From a plasmid, in NCBI RefSeq assembly GCF_056712565.1, contig NZ_JBWXXM010000004.1: a DNA stretch of 64,000 nt; one strand, written 5' to 3'. The position numbers and the translations under genes were made by a program. Numbering within the stretch: position 1 is the first letter of the stretch; the number at the start of each line of letters is the position of its first letter. Shown here piece after piece: positions 31,233-60,475 of this stretch. The notes beneath the pieces were generated by a model, which was not told the origin of the DNA, ran no database searches, and was given only the letters and a program-made list of their open reading frames with translations.

Positions 31233-31748
31233 ATGGCGTTAACACACCGCGAACTCTGTCAAATTGCGTACAAGTTCCTTAAGCGCAACGGGTTCAAGGT
31301 TTGTTTTCATGACCGCTTTATAGCTGTAACCAGTACCGGAGAACAGCCAGATGCTATGGGGTTCAGAAATTCAGCATCATGCCTGATAGAGGCGAAGTGT
31401 TCTCGTGCTGACTTGTTGGCAGATAGAAAAAAGCGTTTCCGTAAAAATCCCTCACTTGGCATGGGCGACTGGCGATTCTTTATTAGTGAGCCGGGAATTA
31501 TTTCAATTGAGGATTTACCACCTGGCTGGGGATTACTTCACGTTGTTAACGGAAGAGTACGGAAAGTACATGGGTGGCCCAAGGGTAATTGCTGTTGGGG
31601 TAATCCTGACGATAAGCCATTTACTGGAAATAAGCAGGTTGAATGCGATTACATGTTATCTGCATTAAGGCGCATGGAGTTGAGAGGGCACCTTAATGAA
31701 ATATATGACGGTGTAATTGTTAATAAGAAAGAAGGAAACGCGGCATGA
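31233..31748 (+). CDS. PD-(D/E)xK nuclease-fold protein
   Basis: 171 aa from ATG 31233 (RBS AAGGAGAG); motif ..EQPDAMGF..(12)..LIEAKCS. Confidence 0.5.
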   Translation: MALTHRELCQIAYKFLKRNGFKVCFHDRFIAVTSTGEQPDAMGFRNSASCLIEAKCSRADLLADRKKRFRKNPSLGMGDWRFFISEPGIISIEDLPPGWGLLHVVNGRVRKVHGWPKGNCCWGNPDDKPFTGNKQVECDYMLSALRRMELRGHLNEIYDGVIVNKKEGNAA

Positions 31749-32944
31749 TCACTATTACCAAAGAGCGACTGCTGACAATCAAGCAGTGGCGCGAAACATA
31801 CGGACCTGGTAGCAACGTTGTACTGCCAGCAGAAGAAGCGGAAGAGCTGGCACGGATTGCTCTGGCATCGCTGGAAGCAGAACCGGTGGCATGGACTGAT
31901 GAAGAGGAACTGCGCGATGTCAGGAAGTATGGTTTCGGTGAGATATTTCAGTGTCCGCCAGATAAATATGCGGACCCGCGTCGTGTAATCTCGCTGTATC
32001 GCGAGCTGCCAGCACCGGTAGTGCCAGATGATTGGCAACTCGTACCTAAGAAAATAACACTGGAAATGGAATGTGCTCTATCAAAAGCTGATAGCTATGA
32101 AATTGGTTGGCTATGGGCATTGGCAGCCGCACCTAAATACGAAGTACAGAACGCTAAACGCGTGCAAAACGCGCTTAACGCCTGCCGCGCCGCCATGCTT
32201 CAGTCCGGAAACTTTCGGGAAAACAAGAATTCGTCAACCAATAATTTTCGGGAAATCGCGGAAACGTCAACCAACTATCCGGCAATTCCTAGTGAGGTGT
32301 TGTCCGCAATCCTGAAGGTTGCCAGGATTCGTGCCGATTTCGATGATTTTGACGGTGACAGGCGAGGTATCGGTGATTGTCTGGATGAGGCTGAGCAAGA
32401 GCTTATCGTTACCATTAACAAATATGCCAGTCAGTTGGCAGCAGAACCGATAGCGACTAATGACGTTCGAGAGCAGCAGACAGCCGTTCCGCCAGTTCCG
32501 GAAATACAGGATGATGTCGCGCAAGCAATTGAAAATCTCAAGCAGAAGTTAGTGGAATGCAATCGCTATAACTACTGCGCAGATGCAGTTAAAGGCGTAG
32601 AGGATGCCTGCCACGCTGCCATGCTTCAGGGTAGGGAACGCCTTGTTCTGGATGCCGCTACCAGAACCGCCGCAGGAGGCGAAATGATGGATGTAAAAGA
32701 GAAGGTTTTGCAGGTGATGCGTTCCCGGGCTGCCCTGCAAGATAAAGCTCTCGGCGGGGAATATCCATTCAGGATGGCAACCTGGAATCTGCGGTTGGCA
32801 ATGGAGAAGGAATTTCCTGATGAAGAATGGCGGTCGGCAGATTTGCGCAAAATTCTTATGGAGCTGGCTAAAGATGGAACAGTATCCAAAGATACCCATG
32901 CCAGCCGGATTGGTCAGGCGGTATGGAGACTGGAGGTGAGGTAA
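31745..32944 (+). CDS. hypothetical protein with internal repeat
   Basis: 399 aa; repeated segments NALNACRAAMLQSGNFRE and GVEDACHAAMLQGRE. Confidence 0.5.
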   Translation: MITITKERLLTIKQWRETYGPGSNVVLPAEEAEELARIALASLEAEPVAWTDEEELRDVRKYGFGEIFQCPPDKYADPRRVISLYRELPAPVVPDDWQLVPKKITLEMECALSKADSYEIGWLWALAAAPKYEVQNAKRVQNALNACRAAMLQSGNFRENKNSSTNNFREIAETSTNYPAIPSEVLSAILKVARIRADFDDFDGDRRGIGDCLDEAEQELIVTINKYASQLAAEPIATNDVREQQTAVPPVPEIQDDVAQAIENLKQKLVECNRYNYCADAVKGVEDACHAAMLQGRERLVLDAATRTAAGGEMMDVKEKVLQVMRSRAALQDKALGGEYPFRMATWNLRLAMEKEFPDEEWRSADLRKILMELAKDGTVSKDTHASRIGQAVWRLEVR

Positions 32945-38608: not shown

Positions 38609-38694
38609 TTGATTGCTTGCCCGTTCCGGGCCTTTTGACATGTGACTTTCGTTACCCTCGCGTCAAAAAGAGTTTTATACGAAAGGAAGCATAA

Positions 38695-39887
38695 GTGACC
38701 TGGGACGATCACAAGAAGAATTTTGCTCGCCTGGCGCGAGATGGTGGTTACACCATCGCACAATATGCCGCCGAGTTTAATCTCAACCCAAACACCGCAC
38801 GTCGTTATCTCCGTGCATTCAAAGAAGACACCGGAACAGCGGACAGCCGTAAGCCAAATAAGCCTGTCAGAAAACCACTAAAAAGCATGATCATTGATCA
38901 CGCTAATGATCAACGTGCAGGTGATCACATTGTGGCTGAAATGGCTGAAAAACAAAGAGTTAATGCTGTTGTCAGTGCCGCAGTCGAGAACGCGAAGCGC
39001 CAGAATAAGCGCATAAATGATCGTTCTGATGATCATGACGTGATCACCCGCGCCCACCGGACCTTACGTGATCGCCTGGAACGCGACACCCTGGATGATG
39101 ATGGTGAACGCTTTGAATTCGAAGCTGGCGATTACCTGATAGATAACGTTGAAGCGCGGAAGGCCGCGCGCGCTATGTTGCGTCGGTCCGGGGCTGATGT
39201 TCTGGAAACCACTCTTCTGGAAAAGTCTCTCTCTCATCTCCTTATGCTGGAGAACGCCAGGGATACGTGTATTCGCTTGGTTCAGGAAATGCGCGATCAG
39301 CAAAAAGACGATGATGAAGGAACTCCGCCTGAATACCGTATCGCGAGCATGCTAAACAGCTGTTCCGCGCAGATAAGCAGCCTGATCAACACCATTTACA
39401 GCATCCGGAATAACTATCGAAAAGAAAGCCGGGAGGCGGAAAAGCACGCTTTGTCTATGGGGCAAGCTGGCATTGTAAGCTGGCATACGAACGAAAGCGT
39501 GAAAACAACTGGTCAGTGCTGGAGGCAGCTGAATTCATCGAGGCGCATGGAGGGAAAGTACCGCCCCTGATGCTGGAGCAAATCAAAGCCGATCTGCGTG
39601 CTCCTAAGACCAATACCGATGATGAGGAAAGGCAAACAGCCGTCGGTGGCCCTTCTCTTGAAGATCTGGACAAAGTTGCGCGAGAACGGGCCGCCAACCG
39701 CCGCGCCGATGCCGCATTGTGGATTGAGCAGCGTAGGGAAGAAATCGCCGATATCGTTGATACAGGCGGTTATGGAGATGTTGATACTGAAGGTGTATCA
39801 AACGACCCATGGCTGGAACAAGACCTGGACGAAGACGAGGAGGAAGACGAAGAAGTTACCCGCAAGCTATACGGGGATGATGATTAA
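38695..39887 (+). CDS. pacA: PacA small terminase subunit, reading frame interrupted near 39450
   Basis: Frame 1 (38695-39570) and frame 0 (to 39887) join seamlessly if the TTT run at 39450-39452 were TTTT; reconstructed length 397 aa. Confidence 0.7.
38888..39046. other. pac: pac packaging site (4 + 3 TGATCA/G hexamers)
   Basis: TGATCA at 38888, 38895, 38907, 38922 and TGATCG/TGATCA at 39018, 39030, 39041 inside pacA. Confidence 0.75.
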
Positions 39888-41371
39888 TGGCCAGAAGTTG
39901 CGTAACGGATCCACGTTGGCGCGAGCTGGTGGCGCTATATCGTTATGACTGGATTGCTGCCGCTGATGTTTTGTTCGGCAAAACACCTACCTGGCAGCAG
40001 GATCTGATTATTGAGTCTGTGCAGGAACAGGGTAGCAAGACATCTGTTTCGTCTGGTCACGGTACCGGGAAATCAGACATGACTTCTATCATGATCATGT
40101 TGTTCATAATCATGTATCCAGGTGCCCGTGCCATTATCGTTGCGAACAAAATTCAGCAGGTAATGACCGGTATATTCAAGTACATCAAGATAAACTGGGC
40201 TACTGCCACCAGCCGTTTCCCATGGCTTGCTGATTATTTTGTTCTGACAGAAACCGCTTTCTATGAGATTACTGGTAAAGGTGTATGGACTGTAGTACCG
40301 AAGGGCTTTCGTCTGGGAAGTGAAGAAGCTCTCGCCGGTGAACACGCAGATCATCTTCTGTATATTATCGATGAAGCCTCCGGTGTCAGTGATAGAGCTT
40401 TCGGTATCATCACCGGTGCTCTTACCGGACAGGATAACCGCATCTTATTGCTGTCACAGCCTACACGCCCAAGCGGCTATTTCTACGATACACACCATAA
40501 ACTGGCCAAGCGTCCTGGTAACCCTGATGGCGTTTATACGGCGATCACGCTTAACAGTGAGGAATCACCGTTGGTAACGCCAGCATTTATCAAAATGAAG
40601 CTGGCGGAGTACGGCGGGCGTGATAACCCTATGTACATGATTAAGGTACGCGGCCTATTCCCTAAATCACAGGATGGCTTCCTTCTTGGACGTGATGAGG
40701 TTGAACGTGCGACGCGGCGGAAAGTCAAGATTGCCAAAGGATGGGGCTGGCTTGCATGTGTGGACGTTGCTGGTGGTACGGGACGGGATAAGTCCGTTAT
40801 CAATATCATGATGGTGTCCGGCCAGAGAAATAAACGCCGTGTAATCAACTATCGAATGCTGGAATACACAGACGTTACAGAAACGCAGCTTGCCGCCAAA
40901 ATTTTCGCAGAATGTAATCCTGAGCGATTCCCAAATATCACCATAGCGATAGACGGCGATGGGCTGGGTAAAGCAACGGCGGATCTGATGTACGAGTATT
41001 ATGGTATTACCGTACAGCGTATACGCTGGGGTAAAAAGATGCATAGCCGTGAAGATAAGAGCCTGTACTTTGATAAACGTGCTTATGCCAACGTTCAAGC
41101 CGCAGAGGCCGTAAAATCTGGTCGTATGAGACTGGATAAGGGTAATGAAACTATTGAGGAAGCGTCGAAAATCCCTGTAGGGATTAACTCCGCAGGTCAA
41201 TGGAAGGTGATGAGTAAGGAGGATATGAAGAAAAAACTCAACCTGCACTCACCAGACCATTGGGATACATATTGTTTCGCTATGCTGGCGGATTATGTTC
41301 CCCAGGATGAAGTGCTTAGCGTCGAAGACGAAGCGCAGGTTGATGAAGCTCTGGCATGGCTTAATGAATAA
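39887..41371 (+). CDS. pacB: PacB large terminase subunit
   Basis: 494 aa downstream of pacA with overlapping stop/start. Confidence 0.8.
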
Positions 41372-43400: not shown

Positions 43401-44432
43401 ATGTCCAATTTACTGACCGTACACCAAAATTTGCCTGCATTACCGGTCGATGCAACGAGTGATGAGGTTCGCAAGAACCTGATGGACATGTTCAGGGATC
43501 GCCAGGCGTTTTCTGAGCATACCTGGAAAATGCTTCTGTCCGTTTGCCGATCGTGGGCGGCATGGTGCAAGTTGAATAACCGGAAATGGTTTCCCGCAGA
43601 ACCTGAAGATGTTCGCGATTATCTTCTATATCTTCAGGCGCGCGGTCTGGCAGTAAAAACTATCCAGCAACATTTGGGCCAGCTAAACATGCTTCATCGT
43701 CGGTCCGGGCTGCCACGACCAAGTGACAGTAATGCTGTTTCACTGGTCATGCGACGGATCCGAAAAGAAAACGTTGATGCCGGTGAACGTGCAAAACAGG
43801 CACTGGCGTTCGAACGCACTGATTTCGACCAGGTTCGTTCACTCATGGAAAATAGCGATCGCTGCCAGGATATACGTAATCTGGCATTTCTGGGGATTGC
43901 TTATAACACCCTATTACGTATAGCCGAAATTGCCAGGATCAGGGTTAAAGATATCTCACGTACTGACGGTGGGAGAATGTTAATCCATATTGGCAGAACG
44001 AAAACGCTGGTTAGCACCGCAGGTGTAGAGAAGGCACTTAGCCTGGGGGTAACTAAACTGGTCGAGCGATGGATTTCTGTCTCTGGTGTGGCTGATGATC
44101 CGAATAACTACTTGTTTTGCCGTGTCAGAAAAAATGGTGTTGCCGCGCCATCTGCCACCAGCCAGCTATCAACTCGCGCCCTGGAAGGGATTTTTGAAGC
44201 AACTCATCGATTGATTTACGGCGCTAAGGATGACTCTGGTCAGAGATACCTGGCCTGGTCTGGACACAGTGCCCGTGTCGGAGCCGCGCGAGATATGGCC
44301 CGCGCCGGAGTTTCAATACCGGAGATCATGCAAGCTGGTGGCTGGACCAACGTAAATATTGTCATGAACTATATCCGTAACCTGGATAGTGAAACGGGGG
44401 CAATGGTGCGCCTGCTGGAAGATGGCGATTAG
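43401..44432 (+). CDS. cre: Cre tyrosine recombinase
   Basis: 343 aa MSNLLTVHQNLPALPVDATSDEVRKNLMDMFRDRQAFSEHTWKMLLSVCRSWAAWCKLNNRKWFPAEPEDVRDYLLYLQARGLAVKTIQQHLGQLNMLHRRSGLPRPSDSNAVSLVMRRIRKENVDAGERAKQALAFERTDFDQVRSLMENSDRCQDIRNLAFLGIAYNTLLRIAEIARIRVKDISRTDGGRMLIHIGRTKTLVSTAGVEKALSLGVTKLVERWISVSGVADDPNNYLFCRVRKNGVAAPSATSQLSTRALEGIFEATHRLIYGAKDDSGQRYLAWSGHSARVGAARDMARAGVSIPEIMQAGGWTNVNIVMNYIRNLDSETGAMVRLLEDGD; next to loxP. Confidence 0.97.
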   Translation: MSNLLTVHQNLPALPVDATSDEVRKNLMDMFRDRQAFSEHTWKMLLSVCRSWAAWCKLNNRKWFPAEPEDVRDYLLYLQARGLAVKTIQQHLGQLNMLHRRSGLPRPSDSNAVSLVMRRIRKENVDAGERAKQALAFERTDFDQVRSLMENSDRCQDIRNLAFLGIAYNTLLRIAEIARIRVKDISRTDGGRMLIHIGRTKTLVSTAGVEKALSLGVTKLVERWISVSGVADDPNNYLFCRVRKNGVAAPSATSQLSTRALEGIFEATHRLIYGAKDDSGQRYLAWSGHSARVGAARDMARAGVSIPEIMQAGGWTNVNIVMNYIRNLDSETGAMVRLLEDGD

Positions 44433-44449
44433 CCGTTCATTTGCGCTTG

Positions 44450-44466
44450 ATTGCTCTAATTATTTG
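44450..44466 (+). promoter_or_regulatory. C1-operator-like site
   Basis: ATTGCTCTAATTATTTG between cre and next ORF. Confidence 0.5.
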
Positions 44467-44482
44467 ATATTTATGGTGACGC

Positions 44483-44794
44483 ATGCGGAAGGATTTCAAA
44501 ATAGACGGAAAATATGTGGTGCTGTCTGTAAGCTCTCAAATTCAGTCACCATCTGTCATTGTCACCGTAAAGTTGAGCGATAGGATGCCTGATATCGACT
44601 CGATATCTGTTGCGTTCCCCGTTAAAAGCATGCGGAGTGCTGAACATTTTGTGATGAATGCAACGGAGGAGGAAGCGCGGCGCGGGCTTACTAGAGTGAT
44701 GGTGGAATTTGGCGAACTCCTGGGTAAGGTAAACAATGCCCTTTCAATCAGTTCAGCAAGATCCAAAGCGTTAACAGCTTCCATGATGAAATAA
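44483..44794 (+). CDS. hypothetical protein between cre and ref
   Basis: 103-aa ORF. Confidence 0.45.
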   Translation: MRKDFKIDGKYVVLSVSSQIQSPSVIVTVKLSDRMPDIDSISVAFPVKSMRSAEHFVMNATEEEARRGLTRVMVEFGELLGKVNNALSISSARSKALTASMMK

Positions 44795-44819
44795 AAAAAG
44801 CCTGGCAAGGAGCCAGGCT
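44793..44819 (-). terminator. hairpin with minus-strand T-run (terminator-like)
   Basis: AAAAAAAGCCTGGCAAGGAGCCAGGC on plus strand; stem then T-run when read on minus strand. Confidence 0.35.
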
Positions 44820-44915
44820 GCACAAAAGAGCGGGTTTGTATTCCGCATCCAATCAATCAAGAAGGAGTATAGCACACAGGTACTGAAGTGAAAAAATGTG
44901 ATTCGCGATTAACAA

Positions 44916-44932
44916 AATATCTGCCATTGCTC
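44916..44932 (+). promoter_or_regulatory. C1-operator-like site upstream of ref
   Basis: ATTGCTCTAATTGATTG. Confidence 0.55.
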
Positions 44933-44999
44933 TAATTGATTGCTATAATTAAGCCGCAGTTTTTGTCAACTACGAAGACGTTGCCATTACTTAACTCCT

Positions 45000-45026
45000 T
45001 GACATCATTGGCGGCCATTAGGCCGC
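45000..45026 (+). terminator. hairpin plus T9 tract immediately upstream of ref start
   Basis: GGCGGCCATTAGGCCGCC then TTTTTTTTT, 15 nt before the ref ATG. Confidence 0.45.
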
Positions 45027-45041
45027 CTTTTTTTTTGCCAT

Positions 45042-45602
45042 ATGAAAACAATCGAACAAAAACTTGAACAGCGCCGCGAGTGGCAGAAGGCAGCCAGAGA
45101 ACGAGCGATCGCTCGGCAACGGGAAAAGTTGGCTGACCCCGCCTGGCGAGAATCGCAATATCAGAAAATGCGGGATTCTATCGACCGCCGTATCGCTAAA
45201 CAGAAAGAGCGCCCACCAGCCAGCAAAACGCGGAAAAGTGCGGTAAAGATAAAATCTCGTGGCTTGAAGGGGCGAACATCGACAGCGGAGGAACGGAGCA
45301 TCGCCAATGCTCTTGGCGCTCTCCCCTGCATTGCCTGCTACATGCATGGAGTAATATCTGAAGAGGTATCTCTGCACCATATCTCCGGTCGTACCGCGCC
45401 GGGTTGTCACAAAAAGCAATTGCCCCTTTGTAGATGGCACCACCAGCATGCAGCACCGGCTGAAGTAAGAGAAAAATACCCCTGGCTGGTCCCTGTTCAT
45501 GCCGATGGTGTGGTTGGAGGCAAGAAAGAATTCACCTTGCTGAACAAGTCAGAGATGGAGTTGCTGGCTGACGCCTATGAGATGGCAAACATCATGCACT
45601 AA
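45042..45602 (+). CDS. ref: Ref recombination enhancement function (HNH endonuclease)
   Basis: 186 aa; HNH-like Cys/His cluster CIACYMHG..HHISGR..CHKKQLPLCRWHH. Confidence 0.85.
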   Translation: MKTIEQKLEQRREWQKAARERAIARQREKLADPAWRESQYQKMRDSIDRRIAKQKERPPASKTRKSAVKIKSRGLKGRTSTAEERSIANALGALPCIACYMHGVISEEVSLHHISGRTAPGCHKKQLPLCRWHHQHAAPAEVREKYPWLVPVHADGVVGGKKEFTLLNKSEMELLADAYEMANIMH

Positions 45603-45791
45603 TAAATATATTATTTTTAATCTGAAATAATTGACAACTGACAAGTGACTTCAGTCAGAATCATCACATGCCCGGTACGGATGGATCCCTTTTCAAATAT
45701 TCCATGGACGGCACAGTCTGAGTACCGGGCGCTACCTTCAGTTGTATTGCTAAGCCGCCGCTGGTGGCTTTTCTTTTTTGTAGGGGGCGCT

Positions 45792-46433
45792 ATGGATAAG
45801 AAAATATGCGTTGTTTCGATGAGCGTCGGCAAACCGGCGTCAATGACTGCTGCATGGATCAACAATGAGCTAATAATGGCTGAGCGGACCAGCTACCCTG
45901 AACGCCGCCGCGATATGGAACTCCAGCTGCTGCGCGAATTGCGAGAAAAAGAGGAAAAGGGTTTTATCGTGCTGGTGGAAGAGGAAAACAGCTTTATTAC
46001 TGGTCGAGTTGGCCAGCGTGTAAGGTTGCGCGATCCCTTCATGAACGGCAGGCCGGTACTAATTGAGGCAATGCAGATTTATAAGGAGCTGGAACGCCAG
46101 AAAGCAATCAAGTTACCGCGCAAGGAATCCGGCAAATACATTCTCCACCAAAGCATCTTCGATTCCGAACACGATAAAAAAGGCGATGAGTTTTTCAACA
46201 TCAACTGGAGCGAAATAACGACAGAGCATGTTCTGACGTTGTTATGCTGCTTCGCAACAGAATACAACAACGTGGTAAGCGCAGACTACATCAGGGCAAT
46301 GGCTGGAGAAGTTGAGGCCCGCCAAGAACCATCGTTACTAAGTCCACTGATTAACATAATTCTGGGCACCCAGATACTGGAACAAAAAAAAGTGCCGAAA
46401 GGGGTATTAACAGGCAAGCATAATTATTTTTAA
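45792..46433 (+). CDS. mat: Mat-like protein (particle maturation)
   Basis: 213 aa from ATG 45792 (G-rich RBS); position after ref as in P1. Confidence 0.55.
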   Translation: MDKKICVVSMSVGKPASMTAAWINNELIMAERTSYPERRRDMELQLLRELREKEEKGFIVLVEEENSFITGRVGQRVRLRDPFMNGRPVLIEAMQIYKELERQKAIKLPRKESGKYILHQSIFDSEHDKKGDEFFNINWSEITTEHVLTLLCCFATEYNNVVSADYIRAMAGEVEARQEPSLLSPLINIILGTQILEQKKVPKGVLTGKHNYF

Positions 46434-54400: not shown

Positions 54401-55186
54401 CCCGTTAGCGTCAAAAGTACCGGTAGGCAAGCGGTGAGCGCCAAGAAATTCAGCTTTACGGGATAGGCGCAGGCGTAACCGCTTCATGTTTGAACCTGAA
54501 ACAATGGACGGCGGCACAATCACGCACATGAATCCGCCTGGCTTTATCTTGTCCAGCATGCGGAGCATGAAGTAAGAACCCATGTCCGTTTCTTCTGCGT
54601 AAGGCTTATCGATGTTGCGTGTGTTATCACGACCACCGAACGGAACGTTACCCACAACATGGTCGAATGAATCGTTAGGCGTGCTTACAGCCAGCTGTTC
54701 GAACGGGGAAATCTGTACGCTGTCTTCCGGGTGTAACAGCTGGTTTATACGACCGGAAACACTGCTGATCTCAGTCGCAGTCATCACCGTACCAACCGGT
54801 TTTGTCTCATTAAAAACGCCGGTGCCCGCCGATGGTTCCAGAGTGTTACCTACGTCCGCGCCGTAGAGCTTCATGATCTCCCAGACACCTTCAGCGATCG
54901 GCTTTGGTGTGTAATATTCGGAGACGGACCCGCCAATGCCGCCTTCACCGGTGTACCCAGCCAGGATCTGGCGCTGTTCATCTGTCAGTGTCGCGCCGTC
55001 CACCAGCGAATTAAGCAAATCTATCGCCTTCTGATTCGCCTCCCGGCGCAGTCGGTCATAGCTTTTGCCTTCCACCTTTTCCACGCCGTATTTAATCGGC
55101 GCTCGGTGAGATGTTATTGCCCTAATGTATTTCAATATTTCGCTGACACTTGAACAGCGAAACACCCCCATAGATAGCTTGTTCAT
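48419..55186 (-). CDS. darB: DarB antirestriction protein (N-terminal N6-adenine MTase domain plus DEAH-type helicase)
   Basis: 2255-aa ORF; MTase motifs EPSAGTG and NVPFGG; helicase motifs GTGLGKT, ADEGHNYRN. Confidence 0.85.
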   Translation of the reverse strand: MNKLSMGVFRCSSVSEILKYIRAITSHRAPIKYGVEKVEGKSYDRLRREANQKAIDLLNSLVDGATLTDEQRQILAGYTGEGGIGGSVSEYYTPKPIAEGVWEIMKLYGADVGNTLEPSAGTGVFNETKPVGTVMTATEISSVSGRINQLLHPEDSVQISPFEQLAVSTPNDSFDHVVGNVPFGGRDNTRNIDKPYAEETDMGSYFMLRMLDKIKPGGFMCVIVPPSIVSGSNMKRLRLRLSRKAEFLGAHRLPTGTFDANGTSTVVDVVLMRKHPAEMAEKIPLVDESTLESANVLWSTFISGKWFEKDGRRFVHGTQEKGFQGRIEVRADGQIDNQALKAKLIHRFESRIDWSLLDMAEPSPTADVVGEGEMRLINGVWQKYAGGRWIEADAGKELKIDAASYGADSWEALQRNLTTTEGRLGMTFTQMANVRDKYTTSISDDMVQLVDWINSQPEKYRERLYRGAMIGRMLIEYQDMKAAGHSAEQIEQQRLSLVSRLQAEIDRFGNPGRGPIAKLSGSGARAWFAFRGAIKLDGTISDELTGKLVTHDSSASYDSTSYQDTLRYLYSDLTRDPIQLDDFRLAFTGELPASDDELLNLLASTPGIAVSPYGGIVPFARATSGDINEIVAPKQEFLATLPDGPVKNNVLNQLAAIEEKRIKTPAENIRFKLNSRWFDRSVILEFLQENGYPDLRYVQSVQLEGDEMVSDTYHGGDGLFVGHRYGVVQRKDKETGEIRYEWDRKSGENATGFPAQLEKYLNGARIGGKDSATANGYREQMALLEDQFNKWIKTHDRYDELVAKYNDVFNSNIPYEHSGDPLGLKGLSGKRQPFDYQNSEVRRLSEDGRGILGFGTGLGKTTTALALEAFNYENGRSTRTAYVVPKSVLENWYYEAKEFLSEEAFSNYLFVGLDVLMDGDQIRQVPVLDENGKPVLGTDGTPVMRDALKLADEATITARMNAIPHSNYRAVVFTKEQYARIPLRDDTVDEHAQDMLYDFVAAGRVASAMDSDSHRKEAARRRVLSEYSDTGTEKAEKYPYFEDMGFDSVIADEGHNYRNSYKNGREASQLAYLPTSAVAQSARDMAIKNAYLMKKNGGRGPVLLTATPVVNTPIDAYNMLSHVLPKEYWQNMGIYGPDDFVKFFGKTRLETVQKISGEVEEKMALVGFENLDALRGIFHRWVTLKTAEDVKDTVEIPELDEHQQDAPLTEEQLAAYEELRQQAEAAAKANNGVTTSVNEDGVIEHEKARPIFSIIRDMDRVCTDMDLYYRRITYRFLPEYADAVQQLADSLPKQATSEDDDSDDSITQQSQYSLIDKGEFIQLQVPEAFEQEVNKRLAKFGIDEQTVTHPVTPKYAKLIATLKEFFPEGKQIIFTDEKTQHQKLKRIICNALNLEPSKVGILNAQTVAEAGKTGKKLKAVKPPKELPDEPTDAQIAKYNEQMALYDAYIAQQNEMSLGGLEKIAADFQEGRTPIIICNKKAEVGINLHRGTTDIHHLTLPWTPASIAQRNGRGARVGSNRASVRVHYYCGKGSFDEYRLKTLKRKAGWISDILRSDKSEMENADANDMIEMQMYTAKDDGERLAMMQVQMDKAKAAQRARQKEQATIDLQNYIKAQHAAGEDVEVLTAELERSKAELEKTTADVAKFKQAVMAKAADNADWKARWGSVHHTDRMLLAQYRASLKNAIQRKANISQAISRYEKLLNRTQKAATDIKRLRPLVEDAINKGILDVDPDLVNHASEFLVIGDRSWRVGQYYDCAGDIVRIKSLDFDSQRADVEIIFTFKGTKSGNWDVKTLDKQVDVTPDEDAVMQKISGGVSIAGINDIISCDDFYRFQQRGMIKITDSYGVQTTESGYSIDFVGTYTDPLKHAVYPDRRDDALKSSIAKWVLGMMSEGNNRQIRSAETFLVELFGSNYGDVIASYGDTLSPEAIQEKIADAIARMPEKTSQGATRNGDSELEVTNAIFGTNEFRGSDYEITTAQFGTIGIYSNKAEIKQAMDAASARIVAEREANLNHAVAALTQSWVTAIREAATTGKITPAIADVVNDGSKFMDAYQMDAVKLPSAYGQLSYRMTYNLVSMFSDLAILGLVDLNEVTPELLSMRKNHVEILQRINTVLAGRTDEEKQADADRINLALGNITEEEIAARNEKQEELSSTQGDATSIAQSLGLNYRVSTADLKMMYAPKFAAGEVFGLQEASGMKGVLFRAKDAIKAKFGARWLPAKAKNSDFPGNWWIIETKHNVADVLAVIQQYA

Positions 55187-55195
55187 TGGTAATCC

Positions 55196-55213
55196 TTAAC
55201 AAGTGACTAGTGT
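55196..55213. promoter_or_regulatory. candidate late-promoter box in darB/prt divergent region
   Basis: CTTAACAAGTGACTAGTG contains the AGTCACTTGTT core also seen at 219-233, 20838-20850, 58929-58942. Confidence 0.35.
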
Positions 55214-55252
55214 TAAATTCCGTTCAAACACGATGTGAATTATTCTAATTAA

Positions 55253-57983
<2,731 letters not shown>

Positions 57984-59686: not shown

Positions 59687-60475
59687 ATGACAGCACAAAA
59701 AACTAAAACCATTCAATACCGCCTACGTAATGGCCAGAGTGTCGAAGTGACCATCAATAATGATGGAGTACCTGGCGAAAAAGTTTCTATCTCTGATCTG
59801 GCTATCGAAAAAACCATCATGTGCCACCTTGGCTTTACTGAAGAAGTGAGCAAAAAGCATGGTGTAGCAATCTGGAGCGCAATGGATACTGGTATGCGCA
59901 AGTTCATTACTGCTCGTACCCCAGGGATGACCATGATGGACCTCATGCAGATTGCGCCGCTGTTTGAATGTGAGCCTTTAGATGTATTCAGCAATCCAGC
60001 TATCTGCCAGCAGTTATATGGTGAGATGAAACTCGCGGTTACCCCCATTGTGCTGCATGAAGGATCGCTTGCTGGCGTGTGGAAAGTAGAGCGTATTTCA
60101 AGCTACATGCCTTTCCATGTCAACGGCGTAATCACTGGTGAAAATCAACCTGTTTCCGTTATAAAGTCAGACCTCAAGCGCGCAATTCTTGAAGCAAGTT
60201 GTCGAGTTGTCGGGCTGGGCAAACAGTCTTATGTTTCCTTCCCGGCTGGCCCTGAAGGCCCGGCAGAAATTCTGATTATGGATGCCGATCTGCTCTGGCA
60301 AATACAGTTTCTGATTGGCAAAAGCATCATCCGCGCTGAAGAACTCGATCAGTACATTACCTGCACGATGACGGATGAAGTCAAAAGTGTGGCTATAGCC
60401 AATGCCCGGAACCTATGTCGTGCTGCATTAACAGAACTGCAAGAAAACACCACGGAAGAAGTGGAAAGCGATTAA
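59687..60475 (+). CDS. hypothetical protein
   Basis: ORF-track frame 59567-60475; likely start MTAQKTK at 59687; followed by terminator. Confidence 0.45.
   Translation: MTAQKTKTIQYRLRNGQSVEVTINNDGVPGEKVSISDLAIEKTIMCHLGFTEEVSKKHGVAIWSAMDTGMRKFITARTPGMTMMDLMQIAPLFECEPLDVFSNPAICQQLYGEMKLAVTPIVLHEGSLAGVWKVERISSYMPFHVNGVITGENQPVSVIKSDLKRAILEASCRVVGLGKQSYVSFPAGPEGPAEILIMDADLLWQIQFLIGKSIIRAEELDQYITCTMTDEVKSVAIANARNLCRAALTELQENTTEEVESD

Follow-up and report, generated by a model that had tools for sequence, protein, structure and literature searches.

The pacA gene in the window, the 64-kb stretch of DNA analysed here, was found to be one nucleotide short, and the missing T takes the gene out of frame for the last 136 of its 397 codons. 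We read this as an allele that lost its function very recently, in a P1-like phage-plasmid that is otherwise complete, and on the sequence comparisons given below the probability of this reading was put at about 0.5. The gene is a well-known one, and its frame break reflects either a pseudogenising mutation of an ordinary kind that arose very recently or one isolated error in the consensus. An earlier note on the same DNA had offered a pseudogene, a sequencing error and a slippage site as explanations; the first two stood, with about equal likelihood, while slippage gained no support.

The gene measured 1193 nt in the window and 1194 nt in close relatives. All 20 phage records compared had the longer form. 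So did the best plasmid records, whose pacA was 99.9% identical to that of the window, with one gap as the sole difference. As the earlier note had described, the coding sequence is split over two frames, an N-terminal ORF and a C-terminal frame that runs to the normal stop (Table 1). The note had placed the break in a run of three T's, which proved to be intact, and the gap aligned instead further downstream. In the alignment with SJ46, P1, 813R1, 673R5 and pS159-2 the lesion corresponded to nt 782/783 of pacA, that is codons 261/262 (GTT-AAG). Codon 261 is changed from GTT to GTA and valine is kept, and the frame is lost starting at K262. The true split is thus 261 native and 136 lost residues, and not the 250 and 145 codons that had been proposed. 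Residues 1-261 were 100% identical to WP_000219604.1 of pS159-2 in a tblastn comparison, residues 262-397 are not made in frame, and no single 397-codon ORF is present. The lesion falls in a TT dinucleotide, and its context (GCATTGTTAAGCTGG / GCATTGTTAAGC) contains neither GATC nor CCWGG and has runs of at most 2 nt. Both frames are open in an overlap zone of 154 nt (39414-39567), where the longest runs are 4 nt, and any 1-nt insertion within this zone reopens a 397-codon ORF. Addition of a T to the three T's, the repair suggested in the earlier note, did open such an ORF, but so would any other insertion in the zone, and the product carried 8 wrong residues in comparison with all relatives. 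When the T was restored at 39476, the result was exactly the commonest 397-aa PacA allele, present on at least 1000 public contigs. Because any 1-nt insertion in the overlap zone "repairs" the ORF, guessing from homopolymers misplaces such lesions, and the practical lesson is that only comparison with relatives locates them.

Table 1. Features of the pacA region and their positions in the window.
Feature	Position	Strand	Remarks
Late promoter LPpac	38640-38658	+	Placed by alignment to the P1 annotation; identical to P1 there
pacA	38695-39887	+	GTG start at 38695; expected stop TAA at 39885-39887
pacA, N-terminal frame	38695-39570	+	291 codons: 261 native residues and 30 out-of-frame; TGA at 39568-39570
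pac site inside pacA	38888-39046	+	From P1 annotation; conserved with P1
pac TGATCA hexamers, first four	38888, 38895, 38907, 38922	+	
pac IHF site	38950-38962	+	Identical to P1
pac cleavage region	~38970-38979	+	1 nt different from P1
pac hexamers, last three	39018, 39030, 39041	+	
TTT	39450-39452	+	Unchanged in window, SJ46, P1, 813R1, 673R5 and pS159-2
10-bp direct repeat AAGCTGGCAT	39464-39473 and 39477-39486	+	Spacer TGT here, TGTT in wild type
Lesion	39476/39477	+	One T lost between T39476 and A39477; GTTAAG to GTAAG
Intact (T-containing) sequence at lesion site			TTGTTAAG
pacA, C-terminal part, residues 262-397	39477-39887	+	-1 frame; sequence identical to intact relatives
G_GGA_AAG heptamer	39552-39558	+	In phase for -1 slippage to the PacA frame by chance, and solely through the deletion
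pacB (494 aa, large pacase subunit)	39887-41371	+	Intact; 100% identical to pS159-2

The deletion of the single T was private to the window and was present in no other public sequence searched. An 80-nt diagnostic sequence spanning the lesion gave no 100% match in 568 plasmid records or in 555 E. coli records, and the short allele was absent from the 20 phage records. Searches of IMG/VR, the GTDB representative genomes and the JGI metagenomes did not return the exact mutant junction, and no copy of the 291-aa product was present among approximately 15 billion proteins. All IMG/VR contigs read at the lesion site, at least 120 in number, carried TGTT there. Further relatives, fetched via the neighbouring 103-aa gene, had the intact 397-aa pacA in ten cases of ten, and TGTT was found at the site in all 11 extra relatives.

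The rest of the window was intact. It was collinear over all 64 kb with plasmid pS159-2 of E. coli S159 (NZ_OY757102.1), its nearest complete relative, at an identity of about 99%. From position 18,000 (an approximate start) to 40,689, about 22.7 kb, the two were 100% identical apart from the missing T in pacA. Of the 79 pS159-2 CDS that were mapped, the window carried 75 at full length and unbroken; two were absent as a whole, one had an in-frame 3-bp deletion, and only pacA was frame-broken. The two other homopolymer-linked frame breaks reported in the earlier note were not found, and the case for an artefact that had been built on them does not hold: pacA is the only broken CDS and carries the only private indel. 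In total, 11 indel events separated the window from pS159-2 over 64 kb, and those outside pacA were intergenic, in a tRNA D-loop, or an in-frame change of 3 bp. Four other 1-nt length differences from pS159-2 were shared with independent contigs from IMG/VR (67/82, 59/79, 2/81, and 14/72, respectively). The window assembly is, by these observations, not indel-prone. In a comparison of 20 kb with 11 relatives, two SNPs and a single indel were private to the window, the indel being the one in pacA, so the lineage carries changes of its own.

Several smaller differences were recorded along the way. Blocks with 1-6% divergence flank the identical tract of 22.7 kb (e.g., 116 differences in 44001-46000), forming a sharp recombination mosaic. 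Two small genes of pS159-2 are missing from the window (at ~15011-15025 and ~59690-59697) as clean cassette differences; they encode a 100-aa hypothetical protein (pS159-2 positions 55061-55363) and a DUF2829 protein (pS159-2 positions 9724-10401). The tRNA D-loop at window position 11505 is polymorphic in length, GCGGT-AGAGC versus GCGGTTAGAGC, and the shorter form of the window occurs in 14 of 72 IMG/VR contigs. At ~60553, a 103-aa gene shows an in-frame contraction of 3 bp, with (GTC)3 against (GTC)4 in pS159-2. Positions 31745-32944 form one continuous 399-aa ORF. Over the matching stretch the gene table of pS159-2 leaves out two locus tags and has a single entry, a C-terminal CDS of 86 aa, which may reflect inconsistent annotation rather than a frame break.

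PacA recognises pac as the small-terminase-type subunit of the P1 pacase, and with the T restored the protein matched phrog_1711, "terminase", over residues 1-397 (E = 1.4e-204), and the identical protein on the at least 1000 contigs is named terminase by its sources. Pfam searches gave N-terminal HTH matches below threshold only. The protein thus shows a weak N-terminal HTH, together with a small-terminase-like signal, and no relative with a solved structure was found. The gene order, pdcB - lpa - LPpac - pacA - pacB - c1, is that of P1, and the seven TGATCR hexamers of the pac site (4+3) are all at P1 positions. Codons 1-260 had a pN/pS of 0.09 and codons 261-397 one of 0.12 among 83 distinct intact alleles, in which residues 261-286 never differed in amino acid, so the lost third of the protein is under functional constraint.

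If the base is truly absent from the real DNA, as we infer, the loss of one T in GTT-AAG would shift the frame after Val261 and bring translation to a stop 30 codons on, at the TGA given in Table 1. The conserved C-terminal 136 residues of PacA would not be produced, and the truncated protein is expected to be non-functional. Ribosomes would stop 317 nt ahead of pacB, and since the ATG of pacB shares bases with the normal stop of pacA (TAATG), the output of PacB may drop too, as a polar effect. No + strand terminator or consensus promoter was found between the new stop and pacB by simple scans. With no PacA the pac site would stay uncut, induction would yield proheads and tails but no filled particles, and the element would be kept solely as a plasmid via rep/par and phd-doc. 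A P1 pacA knockout produces proheads and tails and no virions (PMC9024508), and the view in the earlier note that a real frameshift would mean a packaging-defective, plasmid-only element is a reasonable one. The pac site itself being intact, packaging of the element could still be provided by a P1-like helper in the same cell.

The strongest competitor to a recent loss of function is a sequencing or assembly artefact, in which the real DNA reads GTTAAG, PacA is an intact protein of 397 aa, and the consensus has lost one T. We consider it a substantial possibility that falls somewhat short of even odds. The uniqueness of the deletion, the lack of secondary decay downstream in a region under purifying selection, and the repaired gene being exactly the commonest allele all speak for an artefact and against a real mutation. 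The missing T is also the sole difference in the 22.7 kb otherwise identical to pS159-2. In E. coli, spontaneous substitutions outnumber indels roughly tenfold, so that one indel with no substitution in 22.7 kb is somewhat unexpected for a natural event, and matches what an isolated consensus error would produce. In addition, single-base breaks of pacA in other records look technical, namely those in 813R1 and 673R5 (at Dam/Dcm motifs) and in NZ_CP104527.1 (at TTT). Against an artefact stands the record of the assembly, which over 64 kb holds no other private indel, with 75 other comparable genes intact. The site itself is not a typical error site either, being a 2-nt run outside Dam/Dcm motifs and neither a long homopolymer nor a methylation motif. 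Long-read and flow-chemistry errors are not concentrated at 2-nt runs outside Dam/Dcm motifs. Both points count in favour of a real mutation, and broken pacA does exist in nature, as seen in 4 of 60 plasmid records and in a recurrent deletion of 14 bp. Should the missing T be an artefact, it matters merely as a correction of annotation.

The recurrent deletion came from the same few nucleotides of the gene. Wild-type pacA holds AAGCTGGCAT-TGTT-AAGCTGGCAT, and the T missing from the window sits in this 4-nt spacer. No close direct repeat in pacA is longer, and the window has six such repeats in all. It was discarded as a statistical oddity, since 5.2% of codon-shuffled pacA sequences also contain a repeat of 10 nt within 30 nt. 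Quasi-palindromic or templated mutation was likewise rejected on inspection, since the two copies are in direct orientation and could form no stem beyond the 4 bp AGCT. On 80 contigs the gene calls list a C-terminal pacA ORF of 123 aa as a gene of its own. Six such loci were read, and in five of them exactly one 14-bp unit, AAGCTGGCATTGTT, was deleted between the 10-bp repeats, 0-13 nt from the lesion of the window. The deletion splits pacA into ORFs of 264 aa (259 native residues + 5) and 123 aa. Its five carriers represented five pacA haplotypes, 5-39 SNPs apart, and on the haplotype of the window itself the deletion was found in seven contigs from independent samples, in both Logan and ENA SPAdes-type assemblies. 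Examples are Logan SRR21531030 and ENA ERZ4883060, and a C-terminal fragment is deposited as KDX38480.1, "terminase A domain protein". The deletion did not turn up in IMG/VR, the GTDB representatives or the JGI metagenomes. An 80-nt junction query cannot be used to count this deletion, as wild-type records align to it as two joined pieces at 100%. The 14-bp deletion is a genuine, recurrent slippage deletion, and a modest by-product of this work. It also offers a conceivable route to an artefact in the window, which is pure conjecture: polishing over a population mixed for the 14-bp deletion. The spacer columns would then carry most of the gap signal, because every placement of the 14-bp gap covers the 4-nt spacer.

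Other lesions of pacA were met when 60 of the 578 plasmid matches, evenly sampled, were examined: 55 genes were of intact length, one had an in-frame 12-bp deletion, two were frameshifted and two were truncated. NZ_CP104527.1 is one T short at the TTT (pacA nt 756-758, corresponding to window 39450-39452), 25 nt upstream of the window lesion, and is the single record in which this TTT was seen shortened. This record lists no CDS across lpa-pacA-pacB and appears to be a pseudogene-rich, possibly error-rich assembly. NZ_CP061751.1 and GCA_000704025.1 share an identical deletion of ~1.1 kb, reaching from inside lpa to pacA nt ~790, with GATGACAGTAC joined to GAACGAAAGCG; the pac site and the N-terminus of PacA are lost with it, and its junction lies 8 nt downstream of the direct repeat. 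An IS3-family transposase is found near the deletion in both. At pacA nt 132 of NZ_AP027577.1, an 8-bp tandem duplication, GACACCAG, breaks the frame, and at nt 1138 of NZ_CP099340.1 an in-frame 12-bp deletion affects the acidic C-terminal tail of a protein still annotated as terminase. Four lesions (the T of the window, the 14-bp deletion, the TTT of NZ_CP104527.1, and the lpa-to-pacA junction) fall at pacA nt 756-795, a clustering that is partly a detection bias, as the 123-aa look-up finds only lesions between nt ~760 and ~822. One could see in it a preferred breaking point, at which the C-terminus is repeatedly lost while residues 1-~260 and the pac site are kept. The loss could then be a recurrent route to plasmid-only life, and the N-terminal, pac-binding fragment might be retained for its interference with packaging by incoming P1-like phages. 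We find this unlikely, and the cluster is a lead, not a result.

Still less probable is a leaky allele, in which a -1 slip at the G_GGA_AAG heptamer would give a 397-aa PacA with residues 262-286 replaced, perhaps with packaging at a low level. The heptamer is the sole in-phase X_XXY_YYZ motif in the overlap zone, placed 10 nt before the out-of-frame stop, and the slip product would have exactly 397 residues. In E. coli G_GGA_AAG is known as a highly shift-prone heptamer, and phage lambda has it as its G/GT site (PMC5009743, PMC3296357). However, no stimulatory structure was seen downstream (MFE -13.9 kcal/mol, z = 0.32 versus shuffled sequences), and the 25 replaced residues sit in the segment that is invariant among the 83 alleles, which makes a working chimera unlikely. 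The two-frame gene is, moreover, conserved nowhere, the relatives encoding a single 397-codon ORF. Slippage at this site would amount at most to an accidental leak, probably of no use. A programmed frameshift or a phase-variable packaging switch through reversible tract length, which the earlier note had also raised, is highly improbable. All that speaks for it is that the break adjoins repeated bases and falls within a short direct repeat. TT is no hypermutable tract, and an off-length tract occurred in none of the at least 120 IMG/VR contigs, ~570 plasmids or 555 E. coli records. The deletion of 14 bp known from other elements takes out the unique spacer and cannot be restored by slippage, and pacA was full-length in 77 of the 77 RefSeq P1-like phage-plasmids surveyed (PMC9603915).

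A real and recent loss of pacA function, the reading we slightly prefer, would leave a P1-type prophage that is able to kill its host on induction but is unable to package itself or to transduce. It would bear on predicting whether such an element spreads as a phage or only as a plasmid, and elements of this kind often carry resistance genes. The window would then give a snapshot of the first step in the decay of a phage-plasmid to a plasmid.

Compared with known systems, pacA of the window is about 94% identical to that of P1 at the nucleotide level, in the same context and with a conserved pac site, and differs in being one base shorter. The identity to the genes of SJ46 and phiW39 is 99.9%. 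Plasmid pS159-2 differs from the window by an intact pacA of 1194 nt, by two extra small genes, and by about 1% of mosaic divergence outside the identical tract. The allele with the 14-bp deletion resembles that of the window in truncating PacA at 259 versus 261 native residues, in leaving the same 123-aa ORF and in affecting the same 24-nt repeat unit; it arises by another mechanism, the recurrent loss of one AAGCTGGCATTGTT unit, whereas the deletion in the window is unique. In vB_EcoM-813R1 (ON470617.2) and vB_EcoM-673R5 (ON470615.2) pacA is annotated in pieces (Pac1/Pac2) as a result of single-base deletions at nt 395, 566 and 1133, which lie in CCCTGG, CCAGGG and GATC, i.e., in Dcm/Dam motifs. 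Deletions at such motifs are a classic signature of Nanopore consensus errors, and these breaks look like errors of that kind rather than biology. The lesion in the window, in contrast, lies outside Dam/Dcm motifs.
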